A stretch of DNA of 37,793 nucleotides from a virus. Position numbers and translations under genes: made by a program. The stretch lies in UHGV virus genome UHGV-0272092, one strand, 5' to 3'. Below are positions 1,453 through 37,700 of the stretch, in pieces (position 1 is the stretch's first letter; each line of letters starts with the position of its first letter). Under the pieces are notes generated by a model, which worked only from the letters and a program-made list of their open reading frames with translations, did not search any database and was not told the origin of the DNA.

Positions 1453-2703
1453 TTATTCCCCCGCCATCCACTTCTCAAACTTCGACGGGGAGAACGGAAT
1501 CAGATCCGTATGCTCCCCGTCAATCCATGAATCAATCATATCGGCCCACTGCTGCAACATGTAGGCGCGCTGTCTGGCGTATTCCGCTTTGTTATATACG
1601 GCGCGCACACCTTTCTGCTCATGTGCCAGAGCCTTTTCAATCCAGTCTGAAGGATAACCAGCCTCATGCAACAACGTACTGGCTGTACGGCGCATATCAT
1701 GTACAGTGAAGTCCTGAATATGCTCACCATCTTCATTTATTATTTTCACCGTTCTGTCGATCAGAGAGTTCAGCGCGGCATTAGATAATGGCTTCCGGAA
1801 ATTGTAACGACCAGGAACCAGATATTCACTTCCACCAGCGCACATCTGCAACCCGACCAATATATCCTGTGCCTGTTTAGGCAGGTAAATAACGTGCGCC
1901 CGGCTTCCCTTCATGCGGTCTGGAGGAATTGTCCATGTCCATTTTTTAAAATCTATTTCATCCCACGTTGCATTGGTGAATTCGCCCTTACGAACCATAG
2001 TGATAAGCACCAGTTTTAAAGCCATTTTCATAGTGCCCATAGCACCAATGGCATCCAGCGTGCGGAAGAACAGGCCAATTTCTTCTGGTGCCAGTGTTCG
2101 CTCTCGTGGTTTAAATATGGCGATAGACGAAGGTTTAATGTCAGCCGCAGGATTAAACAAACCATGACCACGGTCATTGGCGTGACGGTATACGCTACTG
2201 ATGATCTCCCTGGCCTGCACTGCTGTTGCCCGGCCACCGCGTTCGACAATCCGGTCACACAAATCACGAACCATCGATGTGGTAATTTCAGCCATCATTT
2301 TATTGCCAAGAACCGGAAGTATGTCACGGTCGATCACCGCCTGTTTCATTGCGCGGGTACTGTCAGCCAGGATGACGTGTTTCATATAACTGTCGGTATG
2401 TACCGCAAACGTCTCGGCACCACGAATCTTTTTGATACCGTCACGTTTAGCCGCAGCCGGTGACTGGCCTGCTTTAAGCAGCTTCTTTGCAGCAATCAGT
2501 TCTTCTCGCGCTTCTGCCAGGCTGATACCGTCACGCCCATACTGCCCGATTACCAGTGTTTCGCGGCGACCGTTGATACGGTAGTCATAGCGAAACGAGA
2601 CCGTGCCTGACGTAAGCACAGCTACATACAGCCCGTCACGATCGGAGACCTTGTACAGTTTGTCCTGCGGCTTGAGGTTTTTTAATTTTGTATCGGTAAG
2701 CAC
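1453..2703 (-). CDS. int: tyrosine integrase (P4-type, DUF4102-like N-terminus)
   Basis: 416 aa; C-terminal catalytic region HDMRRTASTLLHEAGYPSDWIEKALAH typical of phage integrases. Confidence 0.9.
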   Translation of the reverse strand: MLTDTKLKNLKPQDKLYKVSDRDGLYVAVLTSGTVSFRYDYRINGRRETLVIGQYGRDGISLAEAREELIAAKKLLKAGQSPAAAKRDGIKKIRGAETFAVHTDSYMKHVILADSTRAMKQAVIDRDILPVLGNKMMAEITTSMVRDLCDRIVERGGRATAVQAREIISSVYRHANDRGHGLFNPAADIKPSSIAIFKPRERTLAPEEIGLFFRTLDAIGAMGTMKMALKLVLITMVRKGEFTNATWDEIDFKKWTWTIPPDRMKGSRAHVIYLPKQAQDILVGLQMCAGGSEYLVPGRYNFRKPLSNAALNSLIDRTVKIINEDGEHIQDFTVHDMRRTASTLLHEAGYPSDWIEKALAHEQKGVRAVYNKAEYARQRAYMLQQWADMIDSWIDGEHTDLIPFSPSKFEKWMAGE

Positions 2704-4129: not shown

Positions 4130-4427
4130 GTTTAGACCTCGATACTTTAAAAATTTGAACGACGTTACCGCGCGTTTTAATAACCGCAGCCAGCATGACA
4201 GCGTTGATAATGACCTCAGATAAATCCACAGCCATTGGCGTACGTAACCAGATTGCATAGGCGACTCGAACAGGAATACTGGCCGCAGCAACAATCAGGA
4301 AATAAGCAAGCCATCCTCCCCACCTTCGATGTTGAGAGCCGTTACGCCGGAATGTGACAACGCGAATTGCTATGCCAGTGCAAATAACTGCATTGGTGAT
4401 AAGCAAAAAAAACTCATGCGTTACCAT
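4119..4427 (-). CDS. holin-like small membrane protein (three predicted TM segments, charged C-terminus)
   Basis: Hydrophobic segments [43 protein letters not shown]; sits immediately upstream of the endolysin. Confidence 0.5.
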
Positions 4428-4818
4428 CGTCTTTTCTCCCCGGAATTAACTCGCGTGGATTATCGGAACGGTGATAGAGCCATATACCAATACGCACAGC
4501 GACAATTGCTGACACGAATGCGCCTGCAGAGAAAACAATCCCTTTTTCAAAAGAGTCCTGCGTGATGGTAGGGATCAGGCTGGCTATGCCGATAAGAATT
4601 GATGCTGCTGGTTTGTAAAAGAGAAGGCCGCAAAGAAAGCTGAGCATCGACAGGAGCACCCGGCGACGGATGGGGTACTCTACTGCAGAGGTAACAAAAA
4701 TTACCGCCCCAGCCAAAGCCCCTAAAGCAACCTCCGGAGGGGCACCTGCAATAACCGCAGCAAGAGAACTAAAACTAAGCAACTGATTTAATTGCTCACT
4801 TGTTACTTGAGCAGACAT
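4414..4818 (-). CDS. holin-like membrane protein (3-4 TM segments, charged C-terminal tail)
   Basis: Several hydrophobic helices and C-terminal [19 protein letters not shown]; first gene of the lysis cassette. Confidence 0.5.
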   Translation of the reverse strand: MSAQVTSEQLNQLLSFSSLAAVIAGAPPEVALGALAGAVIFVTSAVEYPIRRRVLLSMLSFLCGLLFYKPAASILIGIASLIPTITQDSFEKGIVFSAGAFVSAIVAVRIGIWLYHRSDNPRELIPGRKDDGNA

Positions 4819-4878
4819 ACTTTCTCCTGTTTACTATCTATAAGCCAGTCAATTATTGATGACTAAACCCGCATAGTA

Positions 4879-4889
4879 AACCATATATG
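4879..4889 (-). promoter_or_regulatory. conserved element AACCATATATG (late-promoter-like), about 60 bp upstream of the lysis cassette
   Basis: One mismatch to AACCACATATG at 8309 and 24915, each at a similar distance upstream of a minus-strand operon start. Confidence 0.4.
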
Positions 4890-5099
4890 AATCATTATTG
4901 TTCCATATCATATATCTCAATAAAAGTACTAATGATTTTACAGAACGAGCCAGCAGAGTGGGGGCAGTTGTACAGGAACCATAGACTTAATTTTGTATTT
5001 AATAATGCTATGGTGTAATAAACCTGAACATGTATTTAAAATACGTACTGATTCATGATAGAATTCAAAGATAACTTTTCACAAACTCCGTTTTTGATA

Positions 5100-5126
5100 C
5101 CCGCAAAATATTGCGGGCTTTTTTTT
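5100..5126 (+). terminator. plus-strand intrinsic-terminator-like hairpin overlapping the tailspike stop codon
   Basis: CCCGCAA-AATA-TTGCGGG followed by C and eight T. No annotated plus-strand gene lies upstream. Confidence 0.5.
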
Positions 5127-8100
5127 AACGTTCTTCCAGAGACTGAATCCGCTCTTTTATCTTATCCATTTCTCTGCGCTGCCATGCTGCCTCGATATAG
5201 AATAAGAGATCAGGTCTGACCCCCCATCTAGATCCTGCTGGCGTTATTTCAACGCGCTCAATGATGTCTTCCATTACCATCACTGGATTATCATCCTCAT
5301 CAACAATGATGCTCCCGTCATTATCAGTCAGCGGCATTTCCCTTTGGCCAGTAATGACGTCATCATATACTGCGGGATAATCGTCATAGCAAAGAAAGGC
5401 ATAGCGGCATGTTGTGCTTTCTTCTTCCATGAGTCCGTGAGAAATAAGAACATCACGAAGTTGCTGCGCGATTACACCATGATGTATCCTCGCCCCTTCT
5501 TCCCCCTTTATAGCGACAGCGTTCAGCCATTTATAAGCGATATACCTGACGTCACCCCAGGCATCCAGCAATGCTTCGTCAGGAGAGACCGGCTCTGTCT
5601 TTAATGTTCCGTCACTGGTAACCACAGGATTGGAGCCAAGATAAACTGTCGAGAACCTGTTTCCCGGACCACCAAGAGCATTTACATTATCAAGATAAGG
5701 TTTAACATCTCCGTTCTCAAAAAGATGTTCGAGTGCGTTATATACCGCGCGACGTGGAGTACTGCTTCCGGAACCATGCAACGTTATCATTGCACCATCT
5801 GCTGAAGACGTTATTTCACCGCCGCTAACGATTAATCTCTGAGCGGTAACATCATCAGACGGTACTTTCTTCGCAATAATGGCGTAATTACCCTCAAGTT
5901 TGACTTCCGCGCGAACTTGTCCTGATGTACCTGCATGGACAGTCAGTGACTGGACGGCAACATCATCTGTGAAATCAACGGGTACAGGAACCGTCCTCAC
6001 GCCTGACGTCGACATAAAAGTAGGAAGCGTTCTGTTAGGAGTGGCTCCGTAGACAAAATCCCTTGAAACAAATTCTTCCTGTTTAATTTTCACCCTGAAA
6101 CAATACAAATCAGCCGGGTGACCATCGTGAACATAAGGATATTTTCTGTTGTTATCCCCTATGCTCCATGGGTTTAGAAAGTCTTCCCCACCGAAAATGT
6201 AGTACAGCCAGTTGTCTTTGATACAAACTGAACCAACACCAACTGCAGAGTTAACTATTCCGCCCTGATAAATCTGATCAGTAACATTAACCCACTCTAC
6301 ATTATCCAGACTCCACTCATTGACGTTAACTCTGGTCATAAATGTTCTTGGATAATTTCCTGCATAACGGTTATCAGGTTCTCCTCCTTCCCACTCACCA
6401 AATGCGCGCTCACTGCCAAAAATAATCAGCTCATCGCCAACTTTGGCAAAAGGAAGGTTTGAGTGATGAACATTATTTGGGAAGCGAAGAGAATTCCATG
6501 ATGTACCTAAATCAGAGCTTCTGTGCAATGAACTACCGGGTTGAGTACTTAATGTCCCCCTGGTCGTCAGATACAGAATGCCATCATAATATTTTACACA
6601 TGGCTCAGATGCATTCGCCTCATATTCTGCAGGTATGCGTCTGCGAACAAAGCTACCAGGAGAACCGAAAGCATCAGAGAAATAGAGTATCCCAAGCTCG
6701 CGTGGACCAATATCACCATTATGGTAGCCAACAGCAAAACTGTTATCGCTAATCGTCGCAAAACTGTGAATCTCAGTAACAGGAGTGCTTCCGTCAACAA
6801 AAGAAGGAATAGTTCCAAGACTGGTTTTTCTCCATGGTGACGAGTGAAATGATGTACCAAAACTCCAGTATCTACCCTCGTTATTCTGATCCACATCCTG
6901 GGTATTTTGCGTCGTAACTGTAAAAGTATTTTTATCAATAACAGTAGTCACCGTCATATTCCCGGTAACACCTGTAACACCAGAGTTTGAGAAGTTGACA
7001 AAATCACCAGCAAATAATCCGTGATCAGTAATGCGAATATAAGCGACTTGCTGATTTGCTGCTTTCGTTATACCACCATAAGCGCGAAGGCTGCGACTCA
7101 TTGGGCGATCCCACAACTCTGCAACCTGCAGTTTATTTCCGCTCACGGTCCGCGTCTCAATTACAGCAAAAAGGCGATTTCTGACAACCCCCATACTCAT
7201 GCAGTGATAGTTAACTGTGGGATAGTTTTCATGTAAATCTGTAAGCCATTCCGGCGTTGTCCAGGTCTTCCCGTCATCTCCTGAGCGAACCCATGCAACA
7301 TGGAGGTTATTTACACCATGGCGGTCTCCAGCCATAAAAGGCGCATAGATGACATTGTCATATACAAACGTTTTATCCTGCGTCCAGGCGTTGTACCACG
7401 GTGTATCTGTAATTTTAAATAACTCTCCCTGGATAAAATCTTCAGAAGCATAAAAAAGAGGCTGGCCCGGTATTCTCTCAAATAAAAAACGAGCATTTTT
7501 AAATCGACTGACATCCGGAAGAGTTGATACTTTAAAAGTAAGCCCTAATCCGTCAATTTTATAACCTGGAGATGAGGCTTCAAGGCACGCGCTTATTGCA
7601 GTGGAATCGTCATTTATACCATCACCAACAGCTCCAAAATCTTTGGGGCTAATAGCATCACGCATTTTATCCTGGAACGTTCGGTACACAGCCCCAGAAC
7701 CATACTGAATAAACCAACCAAAACCACCAACAACCCCGGCGATTGCAGCATCGACATAATTACGCATTGAGCGATTATTTACAGCGTCCTGCTCAAATGA
7801 TGGATCTGCAAGGTTAGAAATTTTGTTTTGCTTTGCATCGTAATATTTTGCAAGCAAAGATGGTTTCATCAATGCACGTCTGAACCACCCAAAACATTGC
7901 TGGATCAGCATCGTCAGGTAGTCAAAGGCATCTTCATGCACTTCGGGGAAAAATTTTCCCTGATTGCGAAGGTCTGTCTCCTGCACTACATCAAGCACAC
8001 GATCTATCGTAATTCGCCATCCAGTAGCAAGCGGAGACGGAAGAACCACAGAACCGCCACTATAAGTGCCCGCCCCAGTTACCGTATAACCGGTATCCAG

Positions 8101-8244
8101 AACCAATTCTGTTACGTTTCCGTTCAGGTCAGACACCTGAACAACCAGGTCTGATTTTCTGAAAATTCGAAAAGTATACGGAAACGATGTCGTAACGCCG
8201 TTACCGGTGTATTCGTTGTGGTCAACTTCGGTTGAGACCGTCAT
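5125..8244 (-). CDS. tailspike / tail fibre protein (1039 aa), probable polysaccharide depolymerase with C-terminal chaperone-like domain
   Basis: Size, position as last virion gene, and a C-terminal segment (GVIAQQLRDVL...) reminiscent of intramolecular chaperone domains of tailspikes. Confidence 0.7.
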   Translation of the reverse strand: MTVSTEVDHNEYTGNGVTTSFPYTFRIFRKSDLVVQVSDLNGNVTELVLDTGYTVTGAGTYSGGSVVLPSPLATGWRITIDRVLDVVQETDLRNQGKFFPEVHEDAFDYLTMLIQQCFGWFRRALMKPSLLAKYYDAKQNKISNLADPSFEQDAVNNRSMRNYVDAAIAGVVGGFGWFIQYGSGAVYRTFQDKMRDAISPKDFGAVGDGINDDSTAISACLEASSPGYKIDGLGLTFKVSTLPDVSRFKNARFLFERIPGQPLFYASEDFIQGELFKITDTPWYNAWTQDKTFVYDNVIYAPFMAGDRHGVNNLHVAWVRSGDDGKTWTTPEWLTDLHENYPTVNYHCMSMGVVRNRLFAVIETRTVSGNKLQVAELWDRPMSRSLRAYGGITKAANQQVAYIRITDHGLFAGDFVNFSNSGVTGVTGNMTVTTVIDKNTFTVTTQNTQDVDQNNEGRYWSFGTSFHSSPWRKTSLGTIPSFVDGSTPVTEIHSFATISDNSFAVGYHNGDIGPRELGILYFSDAFGSPGSFVRRRIPAEYEANASEPCVKYYDGILYLTTRGTLSTQPGSSLHRSSDLGTSWNSLRFPNNVHHSNLPFAKVGDELIIFGSERAFGEWEGGEPDNRYAGNYPRTFMTRVNVNEWSLDNVEWVNVTDQIYQGGIVNSAVGVGSVCIKDNWLYYIFGGEDFLNPWSIGDNNRKYPYVHDGHPADLYCFRVKIKQEEFVSRDFVYGATPNRTLPTFMSTSGVRTVPVPVDFTDDVAVQSLTVHAGTSGQVRAEVKLEGNYAIIAKKVPSDDVTAQRLIVSGGEITSSADGAMITLHGSGSSTPRRAVYNALEHLFENGDVKPYLDNVNALGGPGNRFSTVYLGSNPVVTSDGTLKTEPVSPDEALLDAWGDVRYIAYKWLNAVAIKGEEGARIHHGVIAQQLRDVLISHGLMEEESTTCRYAFLCYDDYPAVYDDVITGQREMPLTDNDGSIIVDEDDNPVMVMEDIIERVEITPAGSRWGVRPDLLFYIEAAWQRREMDKIKERIQSLEER

Positions 8245-8348: not shown

Positions 8349-8363
8349 TTACCTTTCAGGTAA
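8349..8363. promoter_or_regulatory. operator-like palindrome TTACCTTTCAGGTAA
   Basis: Perfect 15-bp palindrome, identical to the copy at 24967-24981. Confidence 0.55.
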
Positions 8364-8400: not shown

Positions 8401-8420
8401 TACTGTATAAATATACAGTT
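8401..8420. promoter_or_regulatory. LexA (SOS) box TACTGTATAAATATACAGTT
   Basis: CTGT-N8-ACAG with AT-rich centre, 18 of 20 matches to consensus TACTGTATATATATACAGTA. It occupies the spacer between a possible -35 TTGATA (8397-8402) and a weak -10. Confidence 0.7.
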
Positions 8421-8439: not shown

Positions 8440-8697
8440 ATGCAGCAGTATCACTATCCACTGGAAGACGGATTTACCGAAAGGATTCACACGCCGGGAG
8501 GCGTCAGGTCACTGGTGGAGGGATCGCACTTGATGAAATTACTCCGGGATCTCGATAAGGATGGATTTAATGTCGATGGCCCACTTGCCGAACTGACTGC
8601 ACTGATTAACTACGTCACCAGCTCACAGATGTCTATGCAGGATCTGCAAACACATCTCGACTATTGTGCCGAACAATTACGAAAACAAACCCGGTAA
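8440..8697 (+). CDS. small LexA-controlled protein (85 aa), candidate antirepressor
   Basis: ATG 8440 with RBS GGAG 8 nt upstream. Plus-strand gene embedded between minus-strand tail genes, directly downstream of the LexA box. Confidence 0.55.
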   Translation: MQQYHYPLEDGFTERIHTPGGVRSLVEGSHLMKLLRDLDKDGFNVDGPLAELTALINYVTSSQMSMQDLQTHLDYCAEQLRKQTR

Positions 8698-8704
8698 ATT
8701 TAAA

Positions 8705-8733
8705 GGCCGCGAAAGCGGCCTGTGACATGTCAC
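8705..8733 (+). promoter_or_regulatory. GNRA-loop hairpin GGCCGC-GAAA-GCGGCC followed by palindrome GTGACATGTCAC (8722-8733)
   Basis: Read from sequence immediately after the stop of the 8440-8697 gene; no T-run follows. Confidence 0.5.
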
Positions 8734-8890
8734 GCTCACGTTATGACAAGCCTATGTACCCTGCTACACCAGATAATATCATAATAACTGCAACAGCAAA
8801 TTCGCCATCGTCAATGATACATTTACGGTTCATAACGCCAAGTGCAACAAGCGCAAACACAACAAGAATAAAAGCAATCATTTCTCATCC

Positions 8891-19170: not shown

Positions 19171-19778
19171 CAGGACAACCTCGCAATGGTAAACTCGTCA
19201 ACCGGTGGCTGTGGTTCCTGTGATTCATTCTGGCTATGCGAGCCAGCACTAAGAATCACGCGATTGTACATATTGAGAGCAAATGTACCGAGATCCGCAT
19301 TCCCAGTCAGCGCCATGTTAATGGCTGCCGCAAGACGCCAGGCCAGCGCCTCCATAAAAATGGCATCAAACATGTTTACATCTGAAACGCGAGAGACATA
19401 CTTGAGCCATGCCTGAGGCTGGTCTGTGTAGATCAACTTTCCTGTTCCGTTGGTGTCTGCACCAACTTCGTACTGAACGCGCATTGCTGCTGTTGGATTG
19501 CGTACACCAGGAAGCATAATTTCAGTAATGCGCAGACAATCTGACGGGTACTGGTACGCATATTCCCAGTCAGGCGGTGGATTGCTCGTATCTGCAAGCG
19601 CCACGCGTTTGGTAGCAAAGTTCCAGTCAAAATCAGAAAGCACAGCATCACGGCAGGCCTCAAAGTGCAGCGAACATTCCCCCGCTTCCTTGCTGGCTTC
19701 CGTCAGGCTGTTAATGCTGCGGCTGTTGCCAATATTGGACAGCGCACGATTACAGATCTCTACTACAGAGGCCATCAC
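19170..19778 (-). CDS. tail tubular protein A-like (adaptor), 202 aa
   Basis: Size and position immediately upstream of the tubular B-like gene (T7 gp11 analogue). Confidence 0.45.
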   Translation of the reverse strand: MMASVVEICNRALSNIGNSRSINSLTEASKEAGECSLHFEACRDAVLSDFDWNFATKRVALADTSNPPPDWEYAYQYPSDCLRITEIMLPGVRNPTAAMRVQYEVGADTNGTGKLIYTDQPQAWLKYVSRVSDVNMFDAIFMEALAWRLAAAINMALTGNADLGTFALNMYNRVILSAGSHSQNESQEPQPPVDEFTIARLS

Positions 19779-20104
19779 TCACCTCCGTTACCGTACAGAG
19801 TTTCAGCCGCTGATTTTTCTACATCCCCGGAAACAGGAGCGATCGCCATATCAGTGATCTGCAGATCGGCGCTGCGATTAACACCATCGTCAGTTTCTTT
19901 GGCAGACAGGCCTCGAATAACAGCCTTTGCAGTTATCATCACTTCTGTTCCGACGCCCTGAGGTTGCGCCTTCAGCTTATTCAATGTGTCGTTATTAAGA
20001 GTGATGCACAGCCCCCACGGGTATTCATCGCGAGTTCTGGTTTCTCCGCTCTCATCCTGGTAGCTGTCAGTGCCGGTTTTGAGGTTTACGAGTTCCATAT
20101 ACAC
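19775..20104 (-). CDS. hypothetical virion protein (109 aa)
   Basis: ORF in operon context with overlapping stop/start; start may be the internal ATG (MELVNLK). Confidence 0.4.
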   Translation of the reverse strand: MYMELVNLKTGTDSYQDESGETRTRDEYPWGLCITLNNDTLNKLKAQPQGVGTEVMITAKAVIRGLSAKETDDGVNRSADLQITDMAIAPVSGDVEKSAAETLYGNGGE

Positions 20105-20148
20105 TCCTGCAATAAAGGGGCCGAAGCCCCTTGTCTGATCCGCGAGGC

Positions 20149-20493
20149 TTACACGCCCAGTTCTTTACGCTTATCTGCGATCTTCTCGCGGAGCGTTTCG
20201 GCTTTGGCGTTATGGTGTGGCTTCTCGTTAAAGAGCAATTCGTACTCTTCACGGAGCTTATCCAGTTCACCATCATCTGACACGTCGTTGATGATTTTGG
20301 TGCTGGTTGCTGCCATTGACACCTTTCCTGCAACTTTTGCTTTTGCCTGTCTGGCTGCATCGTTAACAGGTTCCAGTGCGCTACCAGGCTCACCTTCGTA
20401 TTCGATTTCTGCCCCCTCCGGCCACAGAGTGTTATGGATATGAGAGAGGCGCAGAACGCGGTATCTTGGTTTCTCACCTGACATCGATATCAC
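20149..20493 (-). CDS. hypothetical virion protein (114 aa)
   Basis: ORF in operon context between capsid and tail tube genes. Confidence 0.4.
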   Translation of the reverse strand: MISMSGEKPRYRVLRLSHIHNTLWPEGAEIEYEGEPGSALEPVNDAARQAKAKVAGKVSMAATSTKIINDVSDDGELDKLREEYELLFNEKPHHNAKAETLREKIADKRKELGV

Positions 20494-20932: not shown

Positions 20933-20983
20933 CTTCTTTCTCCATTAGTGGGTCTGTTACGACCCACAGGTTAATAACAGGCG

Positions 20984-24966: not shown

Positions 24967-24981
24967 TTACCTTTCAGGTAA
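24967..24981. promoter_or_regulatory. operator-like palindrome TTACCTTTCAGGTAA
   Basis: Identical to the copy at 8349-8363. Confidence 0.55.
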
Positions 24982-27479: not shown

Positions 27480-28072
27480 TGATTACCATCCTGACGTTCT
27501 TTGAGTCGCTTCCTGGCTGCTGCTATGCGATCAGCAATTGTCACATTCACATTAACATCCAGACGTTCTTTGAACGCGTTGACATCAACATGCTTACCAA
27601 TCAGCTCAAGGTTCTTCACCTTGTCAGGCCATTTAATTTTTTTGAGGATTGTCTCTATCGAATCCTCGTTCATGTTCATGATGGTCGATGACAGATCAAA
27701 GCCACTAAGCGTAGTGCGCCAGATTTTCGGCCACTCACGGATTGGTTTAAGGCTCCCATCGTCGTTGAGGATGTCGATCACGTCCATCTGGTCGATCTCC
27801 ACCAGGCGCATGAGAACGTAATCAGCACTGACGCGCATTCGTTTGTTGCGCTCCTCCATCAACTCGGCAATCCGTTTTTGAATGCGTTCATCGCGCATCA
27901 TGACACTGGCTTTAACTGCCGCTGTATTTGGGGAGAATCCTGCGTTAATCGCTGCCTGAGTCTGGTTTTCAGGCGTTTTGATGTATGACTGGCAATAAGC
28001 CTCCTGCATTGCTGTTAGTGGCTTAAATTGCGTTGATTTGCGTTTATAGGTTTTAGGTTCAGCAGGCATCAT
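27476..28072 (-). CDS. terminase small subunit
   Basis: Position; start moved to MMPAEPK (ATG 28072, RBS GGTGG) because the upstream extension to 28150 contains a terminator hairpin and direct repeats. Confidence 0.65.
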   Translation of the reverse strand: MMPAEPKTYKRKSTQFKPLTAMQEAYCQSYIKTPENQTQAAINAGFSPNTAAVKASVMMRDERIQKRIAELMEERNKRMRVSADYVLMRLVEIDQMDVIDILNDDGSLKPIREWPKIWRTTLSGFDLSSTIMNMNEDSIETILKKIKWPDKVKNLELIGKHVDVNAFKERLDVNVNVTIADRIAAARKRLKERQDGNQ

Positions 28073-28081
28073 AACCACCGT

Positions 28082-28111
28082 GGTAATAGTTACCGTTGTG
28101 GTAATAGTACC
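28082..28111 (-). repeat. tandem direct repeat GGTAATAGT(T)ACC x2 directly upstream of the small terminase start
   Basis: GGTAATAGTTACC (28082-28094) and GGTAATAGTACC (28100-28111). Confidence 0.5.
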
Positions 28112-32160: not shown

Positions 32161-32237
32161 TTACCTCTAAGGTAATTGAAAACCATATAAGACACGAAAT
32201 CAATAGAGTTTAGAATATTTTGTTACCTTGTAGGTAA
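32161..32237. promoter_or_regulatory. pair of operator-like palindromes TTACCTCTAAGGTAA (32161-32175) and TTACCTTGTAGGTAA (32223-32237)
   Basis: Two perfect-armed palindromes 62 bp apart between P and the DUF1064 gene. Confidence 0.55.
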
Positions 32238-34194: not shown

Positions 34195-34425
34195 TCATGA
34201 GTAGAAGAAGTATGCCAGTTCTGCTTTTGAGCGCAGCCATTGTCTTGTTTTACAGGCTTTAAAAAGCCCATTCATCAATACTTTACCTGGCATTTTGCGC
34301 TTGCCTGTTAAGTGAGTCTGGATATAGTGACTCGTCGTTCCGGCTTCCTGTGCGAAGGCTTCACGCTCATCCGGAGTAAGTGCAAGCCAGTGCTTTTTGA
34401 AATCGAAATGTCCGTTATCGCTCAT
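34195..34425 (-). CDS. Cro/CII-like HTH regulator (76 aa)
   Basis: First gene of the minus-strand early operon next to the operator cluster; helix-turn-helix-like segment AQEAGTTSHYIQTHLTG. Confidence 0.5.
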   Translation of the reverse strand: MSDNGHFDFKKHWLALTPDEREAFAQEAGTTSHYIQTHLTGKRKMPGKVLMNGLFKACKTRQWLRSKAELAYFFYS

Positions 34426-34461
34426 AGCTATTGCCTGATATTTATTTCAGATAATAAATAT

Positions 34462-34523
34462 TCACCCATAAGGTAACAAAAATCAAGGATAGTTACCTAT
34501 GAGGTGCATTTACCTGTTGGGTA
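34462..34523. promoter_or_regulatory. OR-like operator cluster with three sites: TCACCCATAAGGTAA (34462-34476), TTACCTATGAGGTGC (34493-34507), TTACCTGTTGGGTAA (34509-34523)
   Basis: Three 15-bp sites in the divergent intergenic region between the Cro-like and repressor genes. Confidence 0.65.
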
Positions 34524-34579
34524 ATATTGCTTTAAATTGAATCATCTACTGATTCATATATGAGGCGATTTTCCAGAAA

Positions 34580-35164
34580 ATGAAAAGTATCCAGGACGTC
34601 CGCAGGCAAAATCTCAACGACTTGATCGACCGTGAATTCAATGGTGTTCAGACGCGGATGGCAGAAAAACTTGGAACTCAGGCAAATCTGGTAAACCGCT
34701 GGGCTCTTGGCAAGAAGGTTATCGGCGACCAGGTTGCACGAAAAATTGAAGCTGCCGCCAATAAACCCCGTAACTGGCTTGATATTGATCGTTCGCTTTC
34801 TCAGGAGGGTTTTCAGCCTGTCGGCCCGAGCGATATAGGTCAGCTGGCGGCTCACAACCTGGAACGCTGGATGAGCGAAAGCCGCGACCTTTCAACACAG
34901 GGAAAACTTCACCGCGCATCCGGCGTCGCCCAGGTGACAATCAGCCGCCTGTTAAACAATGAGGTCAGCGTTTCCATTTCCACCCTGGAGAATGTTGCAT
35001 CCGCATTCGGGCGTCACGGATATGAACTACTGATTCACCCGCACGACCCTGCGACTATCAACTATGACCGCTCACGCTACGCATTGTTACCCGAAACCGA
35101 GAAAGCAAAGATCGAAAGTTACATTGAATTTGTCATCAACCAGAACGAAAAAAGCAAACAATAA
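34580..35164 (+). CDS. prophage repressor, tandem HTH domains, no S24 peptidase domain
   Basis: Two XRE-type HTH-like segments (TRMAEKLGTQANLVNRWALGKK and ASGVAQVTISRLLNNEVSVS); no Ala-Gly / Ser-Lys autocleavage signature. Confidence 0.65.
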   Translation: MKSIQDVRRQNLNDLIDREFNGVQTRMAEKLGTQANLVNRWALGKKVIGDQVARKIEAAANKPRNWLDIDRSLSQEGFQPVGPSDIGQLAAHNLERWMSESRDLSTQGKLHRASGVAQVTISRLLNNEVSVSISTLENVASAFGRHGYELLIHPHDPATINYDRSRYALLPETEKAKIESYIEFVINQNEKSKQ

Positions 35165-35184: not shown

Positions 35185-35210
35185 AAGCCGCCTCATGGCG
35201 GCTTTTTTAT
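35185..35210 (+). terminator. rho-independent terminator after the repressor gene
   Basis: AGCCGCC-TCAT-GGCGGCT followed by TTTTTT. Confidence 0.65.
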
Positions 35211-35221
35211 TGCCAGATAGA

Positions 35222-35298
35222 TTACCTTACGGGTAATTTTTTTAACTCATATCTATTGACACCAAACCAAATAAGCATAATTATTACCCCAACGGTAA
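35222..35298 (+). promoter_or_regulatory. OL-like region: operators TTACCTTACGGGTAA (35222-35236) and TTACCCCAACGGTAA (35284-35298) flanking a sigma70-like promoter (-35 TTGACA 35256-35261)
   Basis: TTGACA followed 14-16 nt later by CATAAT/ATAATT; the second operator overlaps the start region. Confidence 0.6.
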
Positions 35299-35472: not shown

Positions 35473-35772
35473 ATGAACGTTAATCAGCAGAAAAATCTTC
35501 AAAAAATCATGCTGGCATTCGACAAGGACTACCGCCTGTCAGAACAGCTATATGACCGACAAGTTGAACTGATTGAGAGCATCCGACTTCATCAACTGTC
35601 CTCAACTTTCGACGTTGTAACAGGCAAAGGCGTTCGTCAGGAAGTGCTGGAGGCTGCTAAAGACAGCCCTGAGTTCGAAGAACTGATGGATGCCTACCGG
35701 CGCGAGGCAATGGCAATTATAGCGCGCTGGGATCTGGCGGATCAGCTTGATGGGCAGAGGGACGCGGCATGA
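35473..35772 (+). CDS. hypothetical early protein (99 aa)
   Basis: RBS GGGAGGG 7 nt upstream of ATG 35473; ATGA overlap with the exonuclease start. Track ORF opens at 35458. Confidence 0.5.
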   Translation: MNVNQQKNLQKIMLAFDKDYRLSEQLYDRQVELIESIRLHQLSSTFDVVTGKGVRQEVLEAAKDSPEFEELMDAYRREAMAIIARWDLADQLDGQRDAA

Positions 35773-36668
35773 TGCGGAACGCTGGAATCATGGATAGAAC
35801 AAAATACATCGGAGGAAGCGATGTTGCAGGGATTCTTGGAATTAGCCCATGGCGCACCCCGCTTGAGGTTTATCTGGATAAGGTCCAGCCACGTGTCAAA
35901 CCAGTAGACCCAAGCAAGCAGAAAGTTTTCACGCGTGGCCAGCGTATGGAGCCATACGTAATAGACCTGCTTTCTGAGGAAACAGGGATGGAAATCGTTC
36001 ATCGCGGAAACCGCTATATCCACCGTGATTACGATTTTATTGCAGCTGAGATCGATGCAGAAGCAGCGTCAGGCGAGAACATTGAGATCAAAACAGTTAG
36101 TCCGTTCAAAGCCAAAGAATGGGGAGAAATCCAGACAGATGCAATTCCTGTGCATTACACGGCCCAGGCCATGCACGGGTTGATGGTTACAAACAAACAG
36201 GTATGCGTTTTCGGTGTGCTTATCGGTGGCGACGACTTCCGAATCTATCGGGTTGAGCGTGATGAAGAAACTATCCAGGCGATCTTAGAAAAAGAAATCG
36301 CTTTCTGGGACCGAGTGAAAAATCTTAACCCGCCGGAAGCTACCAGCGTAAGCGATGTATCGCTGATGTTTGAGAAAGATGCCGGGACAAGTATCGAGGC
36401 TGACGGAAAGGCACTCGCACTATTCAACGATCTACGAGACATGAAATCACGCAGAAAATCACTGGAAGAAGAAATAGCTATATCAGAAGAGAAGCTGAAG
36501 ATGTACATGCAAGAGCACTCAGTCCTGACCCTGGACGGAAAGCCGCTCTGCACATGGAAATCTCAGATCAGCAACAGATTCGACCAGAAGCTATTCCAGT
36601 CAGTACACCCTGAGTTATTCGAAAAATTCAAAACAACAACGACACAACGCGTCTTCAGAATGAAGTAA
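35769..36668 (+). CDS. YqaJ-type recombination exonuclease
   Basis: N-terminal IGGSDVAGILGISPW motif typical of YqaJ/lambda-exo-like nucleases; paired with RecT downstream. Confidence 0.75.
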   Translation: MMRNAGIMDRTKYIGGSDVAGILGISPWRTPLEVYLDKVQPRVKPVDPSKQKVFTRGQRMEPYVIDLLSEETGMEIVHRGNRYIHRDYDFIAAEIDAEAASGENIEIKTVSPFKAKEWGEIQTDAIPVHYTAQAMHGLMVTNKQVCVFGVLIGGDDFRIYRVERDEETIQAILEKEIAFWDRVKNLNPPEATSVSDVSLMFEKDAGTSIEADGKALALFNDLRDMKSRRKSLEEEIAISEEKLKMYMQEHSVLTLDGKPLCTWKSQISNRFDQKLFQSVHPELFEKFKTTTTQRVFRMK

Positions 36669-36677
36669 GGAGAAAAA

Positions 36678-37700
36678 ATGTCTATCAATGCACTTAAGGC
36701 AGCGGCTACCGGTAACCAAGTTGCACATCATAATGAGAAACCAACAACTCTGGCCGGACTTCTGGCAGACCCAAAAATTAAAGCTCAGATGGCTTTGGCA
36801 CTTCCAAAGCACATGACAGCAGACCGTCTGGCGCGCATAGCAACCACAGAGATCAGAAAGGTTCCAAAACTTGCATCATGCGACCAAGCCAGCTTCCTGG
36901 GGGCAATTATGCAATGTGCCCAATTGGGTCTTGAACCAGGCGGAGCTCTTGGACACGCTTACCTGATACCGTTCGACAAACGCCAGAAAGTAAATGGAAG
37001 ATGGGAAACCGTATCTACAGAAGCACAGCTGATTATCGGCTATCGCGGAATGATTGACCTTGCCCGCCGCTCTGGGCAGATCCTGAGTATCTCGGCTCGT
37101 ACCGTACATACAAACGACAAATTCAGCTACTCATACGGCCTGGAAGAAACGCTCGAGCATTTACCTTGCGAAACAGGTGACCGCGGAGAATTAACGCACG
37201 TTTACGCCGTTGCACGACTGAAAGATGGCGGAGTCCAATTTGAAGTTATGAGCCGGGCAGACGTTGAGAAAGTTCGTGCACTGAGCAAAGCCGGTAGCAG
37301 TGGCCCATGGGTTGATCACTTCGATGAGATGGCTAAAAAAACAGTAATTCGCCGACTGTTCAAATATCTTCCTGTTTCTATTGAAATGCAGAAGGCTGTT
37401 GTTATGGATGAGCGCGCTGAAGCTGGACTTAGCCAAGATAACGCAGCTGTTATCACTGGTGAATATTCCGTAGTTGACGATGAGCGTCAACACCTGTCGC
37501 CAATTTCAGATTCAGAACGAGAAGAAGCTCGAGAATATATCATCGCGATACTTAATAGCCTGGATCCATCTGCTGAAGATGCAAAAACGATGTTCAAGCG
37601 CGCTGAAAATGAAATTAACACCATGGCTGAAAAGCTCGGTGATGAATATCACCAAAAATTCATGATGACGCTTAACGATATGCGTCCAGAATTCGAGTAA
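36678..37700 (+). CDS. recT: RecT-family single-strand annealing protein
   Basis: 340 aa; segments LIPF...IIGYRGMIDLARRSG characteristic of RecT, from memory. Confidence 0.8.
   Translation: MSINALKAAATGNQVAHHNEKPTTLAGLLADPKIKAQMALALPKHMTADRLARIATTEIRKVPKLASCDQASFLGAIMQCAQLGLEPGGALGHAYLIPFDKRQKVNGRWETVSTEAQLIIGYRGMIDLARRSGQILSISARTVHTNDKFSYSYGLEETLEHLPCETGDRGELTHVYAVARLKDGGVQFEVMSRADVEKVRALSKAGSSGPWVDHFDEMAKKTVIRRLFKYLPVSIEMQKAVVMDERAEAGLSQDNAAVITGEYSVVDDERQHLSPISDSEREEAREYIIAILNSLDPSAEDAKTMFKRAENEINTMAEKLGDEYHQKFMMTLNDMRPEFE

Follow-up and report, generated by a model that had tools for sequence, protein, structure and literature searches.

The lysogeny repressor (Rep) encoded in the window, as we call the whole stretch of 37,793 nucleotides that was analysed (UHGV virus genome UHGV-0272092), is very probably a repressor of the type known from Salmonella phage SPC32H, which would be switched off by a LexA-controlled antirepressor (Ant) without cleaving itself. 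The window is almost the whole genome of a Uetakevirus, a temperate podovirus of the phiV10/epsilon15/SPC32H group. Homology of Rep to the SPC32H protein, the matching domain layout, the operators, an ant gene and a LexA box in front of it are all present in the window (Table 1). As a discovery this matters little, since the family has been published together with its structure, its antirepressor and its connection to the SOS response.

Table 1. Positions of the repressor, antirepressor and regulatory sites in the window.
Feature	Position	Strand	Basis or remark
Rep-type operator TTACCTTTCAGGTAA, perfect	8349..8363		ant promoter region, 40 bp upstream of the LexA box
LexA (SOS) box CTGTATAAATATACAG, predicted	8403..8418		perfect; 22 bp upstream of the ant start codon
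ant, 85-aa antirepressor	8440..8697	+	PDB 5d50_E 'Anti-repressor protein', E=4.1e-47; 88% identical to annotated SPC32H ant
Divergent gene, 76 aa, epsilon15 gp39-like, cro position, first gene of the replication-side early operon	34195..34425	-	ORF, synteny
OR-like cluster, three 15-bp sites between rep and the gp39-like gene	34462..34524		palindrome search
OR-like sites	34462-34476, 34493-34507, 34510-34524		1 mismatch, 2 mismatches and perfect, respectively
rep, lysogeny repressor	34580..35164	+	ATG-started ORF, 194 aa, stop codon included
Rep N-terminal domain, aa 1-72, predicted DNA-binding HTH with NLVNRW recognition helix	34580..34795	+	AF2 helix pair 24-31/35-42; YdaS/Cro-type HTH match; DNA-binding role as summarised in PMC9986798
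Rep middle domain, aa 85-155, XRE/HTH_3 fold, putative counterpart of the SPC32H Rep dimerisation domain (MDD)	34832..35044	+	HTH_3 match; aligns to 5d4z; role as summarised in PMC9986798
Rep C-terminal tail, aa 156-194, putative counterpart of the tetramerisation and Ant-binding domain (CAD / TetDloop)	35045..35161	+	aligns to the C-termini of 5d50_A and 5d4z_A; role as summarised in PMC9986798
Intrinsic terminator after rep	35185..35214	+	annotated in the same place in phiV10
OL-like region, perfect operators 35222-35236 and 35284-35298 bracketing a promoter	35222..35298	+	

Identity and relatives of the repressor

Searched against the PDB with phmmer, Rep matched 5d50_A ('Repressor') over its full length (aa 1-190, E=3.5e-42) and 5d4z_A, a fragment of SPC32H Rep spanning residues 92-198, over aa 89-190 (E=3.6e-20). 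These entries, 5D50 and 5D4Z (Kim & Ryu 2013, Kim et al. 2016), are titled 'Crystal structure of Rep-Ant complex' and 'of Repressor', respectively, 'from Salmonella-temperate phage', and the same two structures ranked first when an AlphaFold2 (AF2) model of Rep was compared with known structures by Foldseek. In alignments Rep is 43% identical to the repressors of SPC32H and epsilon15, and the repressor entry in the epsilon15 record cites the same PDB structure of Rep. Much closer are p40 of phiV10 and ORF21 of vB_EcoP_ZX5 (ZX5), from two Uetakeviruses of E. coli, which share 193 of 194 residues with Rep and differ from it solely by the conservative substitution S192N. The DNA of the immunity region is 97-98% identical to that of phiV10, ZX5, TL-2011b and others, and about 75% identical to that of epsilon15 and SPC32H. 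Of 5,426 complete E. coli genomes, 537, about one in ten, carry the rep gene at a threshold of at least 95% identity.

By homology, Rep thus belongs in one family with SPC32H Rep as an ordinary lysogeny repressor, and phiV10 and ZX5 encode what is effectively the same protein. In ZX5, overexpression of ORF21 abolished free phage and cut the transcripts of holin and endolysin by more than 99.9% (PMC9782041). Rep was already known: its family has been crystallised, the protein is in the databases, and the phiV10 GenBank record describes p40 as 'putative transcriptional repressor; two helix-turn-helix motifs (PF01381)'. The first-pass annotation of this DNA, made from the letters alone, had called the arrangement unusual for a lambdoid immunity repressor; with a family that is both crystallised and common, that label is out of date.

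Fold and domain layout

The first-pass annotation correctly described an ATG-started ORF for 194 aa on the plus strand, and the two XRE-type helix-turn-helix (HTH) segments that it placed within the product were recovered both by Pfam and by structure prediction. Pfam matches HTH_3 to two stretches of Rep, the better being aa 106-147 (E=1.2e-9), where related XRE models also match; a weaker match of the Cro/YdaS type covers aa 21-61 (E=3e-4). HTH matches to NCBIfam were all below threshold. The AF2 model, computed for the monomer from an alignment of 32 homologues, is of modest confidence (mean pLDDT 77, pTM 0.41). It is all-helical. Two helix-turn-helix pairs (24-31/35-42 and 107-114/118-125) are seen in it, and the domains break at 73-82, which is a disordered linker, and at 157-162. 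The C-terminus consists of a short segment followed by a long helix (172-193) of lower confidence, as expected of an oligomerisation element.

The notion that the HTH domain is duplicated holds in part. Rep does contain two domains of the same fold, but a recognisable duplication was not found: BLASTP detected no similarity between the two halves, so that they are two domains of one fold without a recognisable recent duplication, and a profile-profile comparison gave no more than a weak alignment in HTH register (E=8.6e-4, probability 23%). A recent internal duplication was rejected on these two results.

The resulting three-part layout, an N-terminal HTH, a middle HTH-fold dimerisation domain and a C-terminal tetramerisation and Ant-binding tail, is that of SPC32H Rep. 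Identity to SPC32H Rep is highest in the N-terminal domain (53%), lowest in the middle domain (31%) and 49% in the C-terminal tail, a distribution in keeping with the common operator and the near-identity of Ant in the two phages. Residues N36-W41, the NLVNRW helix, are the same in the proteins of the E. coli and the Salmonella phages, whose operators are also alike. The linker is six residues shorter than in SPC32H Rep. In the middle domain, Q107, Q118 and R123 are invariant among the 32 homologues, which represent the phiV10-type subfamily, and in the repressors of SPC32H and epsilon15 Q107 and Q118 are replaced (by E/S and P) with the operators unchanged. Net charges of +5 and -1 make the N-terminal domain basic and the middle domain close to neutral.

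Operators and the immunity region

The window contains eight perfect copies of the palindrome TTACC-N5-GGTAA, and none occurred in 100 shuffled sequences. As the first-pass annotation had it, rep lies between an OR-like and an OL-like cluster of such sites; both clusters are real, with sites at 34462, 34493 and 34510 upstream of the gene and at 35222 and 35284 downstream. The OR-like sites are spaced 31 and 17 bp apart (30 and 17 bp in SPC32H and epsilon15), leaving a gap of only 2 bp between those at 34493 and 34510, and their half-sites are also kept in SPC32H and epsilon15. SPC32H shares with the window its operator half-sites, their spacing, the gene order and membership in the genus Uetakevirus. 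On the minus strand, a sigma-70-like promoter (34479..34451) overlaps the first OR-like site. On the other side of rep, the OL-like promoter, of good sigma-70 quality, consists of TTGACA (35256), a spacer of 17 nt and AATTAT ending at 35284, and points toward an operon of gp37, gp36, exonuclease and RecT genes; the operator at 35222 lies just upstream of the -35 element and that at 35284 begins at the last base of the -10 element. The epsilon15 record has repressor-binding sites annotated where the window has this OL-like region.

The divergent gp39-like gene is probably a Cro-like lytic regulator. Its only match was to phrog_35, 'transcriptional repressor' (E=5.6e-13), with no family found in Pfam; its synteny is the same in phiV10, epsilon15 and SPC32H, and all relatives annotate it as hypothetical.

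An operator that is a perfect palindrome, its half-site centres separated by 10 bp, calls for one domain in two copies, whereas the two HTH domains of Rep, being unrelated in sequence, would differ in specificity. This bears on the proposal of the first-pass annotation that a single Rep monomer reads DNA with both of its HTH domains, either as the halves of one 15-bp palindrome or by bridging adjacent operators. The HTH fold of both domains (by Pfam and AF2), the better HTH_3 match of the middle domain, the invariance of Q107, Q118 and R123 in the phiV10-type subfamily and the mere 2 bp between two of the operators all speak for it, but domains that lack BLASTP similarity and differ in their recognition helices could not both read identical half-sites, and the 10-bp distance is the usual geometry of a symmetric pair of identical HTH domains. 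Moreover, the middle domain lacks the basic character of the N-terminal domain, the repressors of SPC32H and epsilon15 have other residues in place of Q107 and Q118 even though the operators are the same, and the solved homologue, as two later papers summarise it, dimerises via its middle domain and contacts DNA with the N-terminal domains of a tetramer (PMC9986798, PMC9638917). Such tandem reading by a monomer is therefore considered very improbable, and recognition by paired N-terminal domains is preferred. There is a slight chance that the middle domain of the phiV10-type subfamily still touches DNA, beyond purely dimerising, as might be suspected from its being the best HTH_3 match in Rep and from Q107, Q118 and R123, which are of a kind usual in XRE domains that contact DNA and do not vary across the 32 homologues. 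With eight HTH units, a Rep tetramer could then recognise additional bases next to closely spaced operators or in the gaps between them.

Five more Rep-type operators lie outside the immunity region, at 24967-24981, as a pair within 28072-28104, at 32161-32175 and at 32223-32237. One outlying operator is intergenic and follows a TTGACA hexamer upstream of portal-side genes; the adjacent pair, in which one site has a mismatch, falls inside the small-terminase gene, no further than 80 nt from its start; and two perfect operators occupy the gap between a P-like replication gene and a DUF1064-like gene. The positions of these sites suggest that Rep may control several transcription units directly, or may loop the DNA between them.

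Absence of self-cleavage features

Rep has neither of the features that define the S24-type repressor class, namely an S24 domain with its Ser/Lys dyad and an Ala-Gly or Cys-Gly cleavage site. Peptidase_S24 had no Pfam match in Rep at E<=10, nor in 32 Rep homologues at E<=1, and Foldseek comparison of the AF2 model with the PDB returned SPC32H Rep and generic XRE HTH proteins only, with no S24 protein among them. The model, being all-helical, contains no beta-rich domain. Past the second HTH domain there remain only about 40 residues, not enough to form an S24 fold, and the dipeptides Ala-Gly and Cys-Gly, as well as Cys itself, are absent from all 194 residues. A cryptic S24 peptidase, sought by profile search, was accordingly rejected, since Pfam, the homologues, the AF2 model and the fold search were all blank. 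On this point the first-pass annotation, which had noted the missing Ala-Gly site and peptidase, agrees with these results, and its reading of Rep as an immunity repressor that is non-cleavable by architecture is borne out by the homology to SPC32H Rep together with these absences.

In lambda and P22, SOS induction acts on the repressor itself. By analogy with these phages, Rep might cleave itself under RecA stimulation by means of a cryptic peptidase and so lose its activity, which would make the antirepressor dispensable. No finding favours this beyond the analogy, and the missing Peptidase_S24 matches, the all-helical model, the fold search, the lack of a cleavage dipeptide, the short stretch past the second HTH and the presence in the window of an ant gene with a LexA box all count against it; its probability is considered negligible. 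Inactivation of an intact Rep by Ant is the reading retained here.

The antirepressor gene and its LexA box

The first-pass annotation had deduced that induction would involve a partner protein, and a homologue of SPC32H ant with a predicted LexA box before it is indeed encoded elsewhere in the window. As in SPC32H, the gene lies between a divergent tailspike gene and two further genes, one for a small membrane protein and one large virion gene. In both phages a LexA box and a Rep-type site lie upstream of it. The box, CTGTATAAATATACAG, aligns with those of phiV10 and SPC32H and is the only one of consensus quality in the window. Three matches to CTGT-N8-ACAG were found there, a number also reached in 3 of 100 shuffles; the other two, at 20954 and 25496, were rejected as SOS boxes because they lack an AT-rich spacer. 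The Rep-type operator TTACCTTTCAGGTAA upstream of the box is conserved in SPC32H, and phiV10 has it with a single mismatch. Judging from its position, Rep may co-repress ant together with LexA from this site; alternatively, the operator could serve to hold a Rep tetramer in place.

Phage records matching the Rep region numbered 36 and those matching Ant 35; the genus counts are near-identical and the records are nearly the same set. The SPC32H-type ant gene and its LexA box are kept in all relatives examined. Past ant, the window (8698-8890) has no more than a terminator and the gene for the small membrane protein, as does SPC32H, whereas phiV10 (19551-20415) has a Bro-N 'anti-immunity' gene and ZX5 (4258-5269) an ash-family gene and a Bro-N 'anti-repressor' gene downstream of ant; at this position the window has neither the ash nor the Bro-N gene found after ant in these phages. 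The antirepressor tested in the ZX5 study is the Bro-N protein, distinct from the SPC32H-type Ant (PMC9782041). Annotation gains from this: in phiV10-type E. coli phages, the product of the gene adjoining the tailspike gene, recorded as a 'hypothetical protein', is an antirepressor of the SPC32H type and differs from the Bro-N protein labelled 'anti-repressor' in ZX5 and 'anti-immunity' in phiV10.

Rep could act as the repressor and yet be relieved mainly by a route other than Ant, whether through a Bro-N 'anti-repressor' as in ZX5 or through a high rate of spontaneous induction. Overexpression of the Bro-N protein ORF4 lowered the prophage fraction in ZX5 (PMC9782041), and ZX5 lysogens release phage spontaneously at 10^7 PFU/mL. 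Against this stand the content of the equivalent position in the window, where the place of a Bro-N gene is taken by the terminator and membrane-protein gene, and the conservation of ant with its LexA box among the relatives, so that a predominant role for such a route appears very unlikely.

Proposed mechanism of repression and induction

The properties of SPC32H Rep are described in later papers that cite Kim et al. 2016. According to these summaries, the N-terminal domain binds DNA and the middle HTH-like domain dimerises (PMC9986798, PMC9638917), while tetramerisation and the binding of Ant both fall to the C-terminal element (PMC9986798). On DNA the protein is described as a tetramer, dimers binding weakly, and the DNA-binding domains that pair on one palindrome are proposed to come from different dimers (PMC9986798, PMC9638917). 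An Ant tetramer is said to bind the C-terminal domains of Rep and to free it from DNA, leaving Rep uncleaved (PMC9638917, PMC9986798). LexA-controlled antirepressors are a well-known induction route of Salmonella and E. coli prophages (PMC7380047, PMC3121763).

By analogy with SPC32H, we infer that the same Rep-Ant mechanism operates in the phage of the window. The N-terminal HTH of Rep would recognise the half-sites of (A)TTACC-N5-GGTAA(T); the middle HTH-fold domain would serve for dimerisation, and not as a second DNA-reading head; and the C-terminal tail would assemble dimers into tetramers and also be the part to which the antirepressor docks. Bound, in a lysogen, to the three operators upstream and the two downstream of its gene, Rep would shut off both divergent early operons, and host LexA bound to the SOS box before ant would keep the antirepressor silent. 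Upon DNA damage LexA would cleave itself and Ant would be made; by binding to the C-terminal domains of Rep, it would break up the DNA-bound tetramer and release the operators, with Rep remaining uncleaved. Induction of prophages with this Rep should hinge on LexA cleavage and Ant, not on cleavage of the repressor, and since about a tenth of complete E. coli genomes carry rep, their prophages should have this dependence.

Comparison with other repressor systems

The same logic, a non-cleavable repressor paired with an antirepressor under a LexA box, is found in coliphage 186 CI/Tum, N15 AntC and the Salmonella Gifsy pairs GfoR/GfoA and GtgR/GftA (Lemire et al. 2011, PMC3121763). These systems have in common with the window a small antirepressor gene outside the immunity region and an SOS signal relayed by LexA cleavage, but their repressors and antirepressors are different proteins. 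GfoR and GtgR of Gifsy are single-domain proteins of about 136 aa, homologous over nearly their whole length to the N-terminal domain of lambda CI (PMC3121763). By this description they are set apart in architecture from Rep, which is longer and has an additional HTH-fold domain.

Lambda CI, P22 C2 and LexA resemble Rep in the N-terminal XRE-type HTH, the palindromic OL- and OR-like clusters flanking the gene and the C-terminal location of oligomerisation. Rep differs from them in having no S24 domain, Ala-Gly site or Ser/Lys dyad; its oligomerisation parts, unlike theirs, are an HTH-fold domain and a p53-like tetramerisation element. Rco of the Bacillus plasmid pLS20 also combines an N-terminal HTH with a C-terminal TetDloop and is relieved by a protein antirepressor (Rap), and the C-terminal element of Rep and Rco has been likened to the tetramerisation domain of p53 (PMC9986798). 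In contrast to Rep, Rco has no middle HTH-fold dimerisation domain, and it serves as a conjugation switch of a plasmid whose antirepressor is under the control of a signalling peptide rather than LexA (PMC9986798).

Other features of the genome

The attP core ATTGAGTGGGAATGATT, as taken from the ZX5 study (PMC9782041), is intact at 2894-2910, with phage genes on both sides (integrase at 1453..2703, lysis genes from 3021); the window therefore represents the phage form, non-integrated or circularly permuted, and not an integrated prophage. The tailspike gene (5125-8244, minus strand) encodes 1039 aa, the same length as the tail protein of ZX5, which its authors consider endosialidase-like (K1 capsule) (PMC9782041), and is unlike the O157 tail fibre of phiV10, a difference that indicates swapping of host-range modules beside the conserved ant locus. 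The exonuclease (35769-36668, plus strand) and RecT (36678-37700, plus strand) are encoded by separate ORFs of 299 and 340 aa, as in epsilon15; the phiV10 record annotates a single 'recET fusion'.
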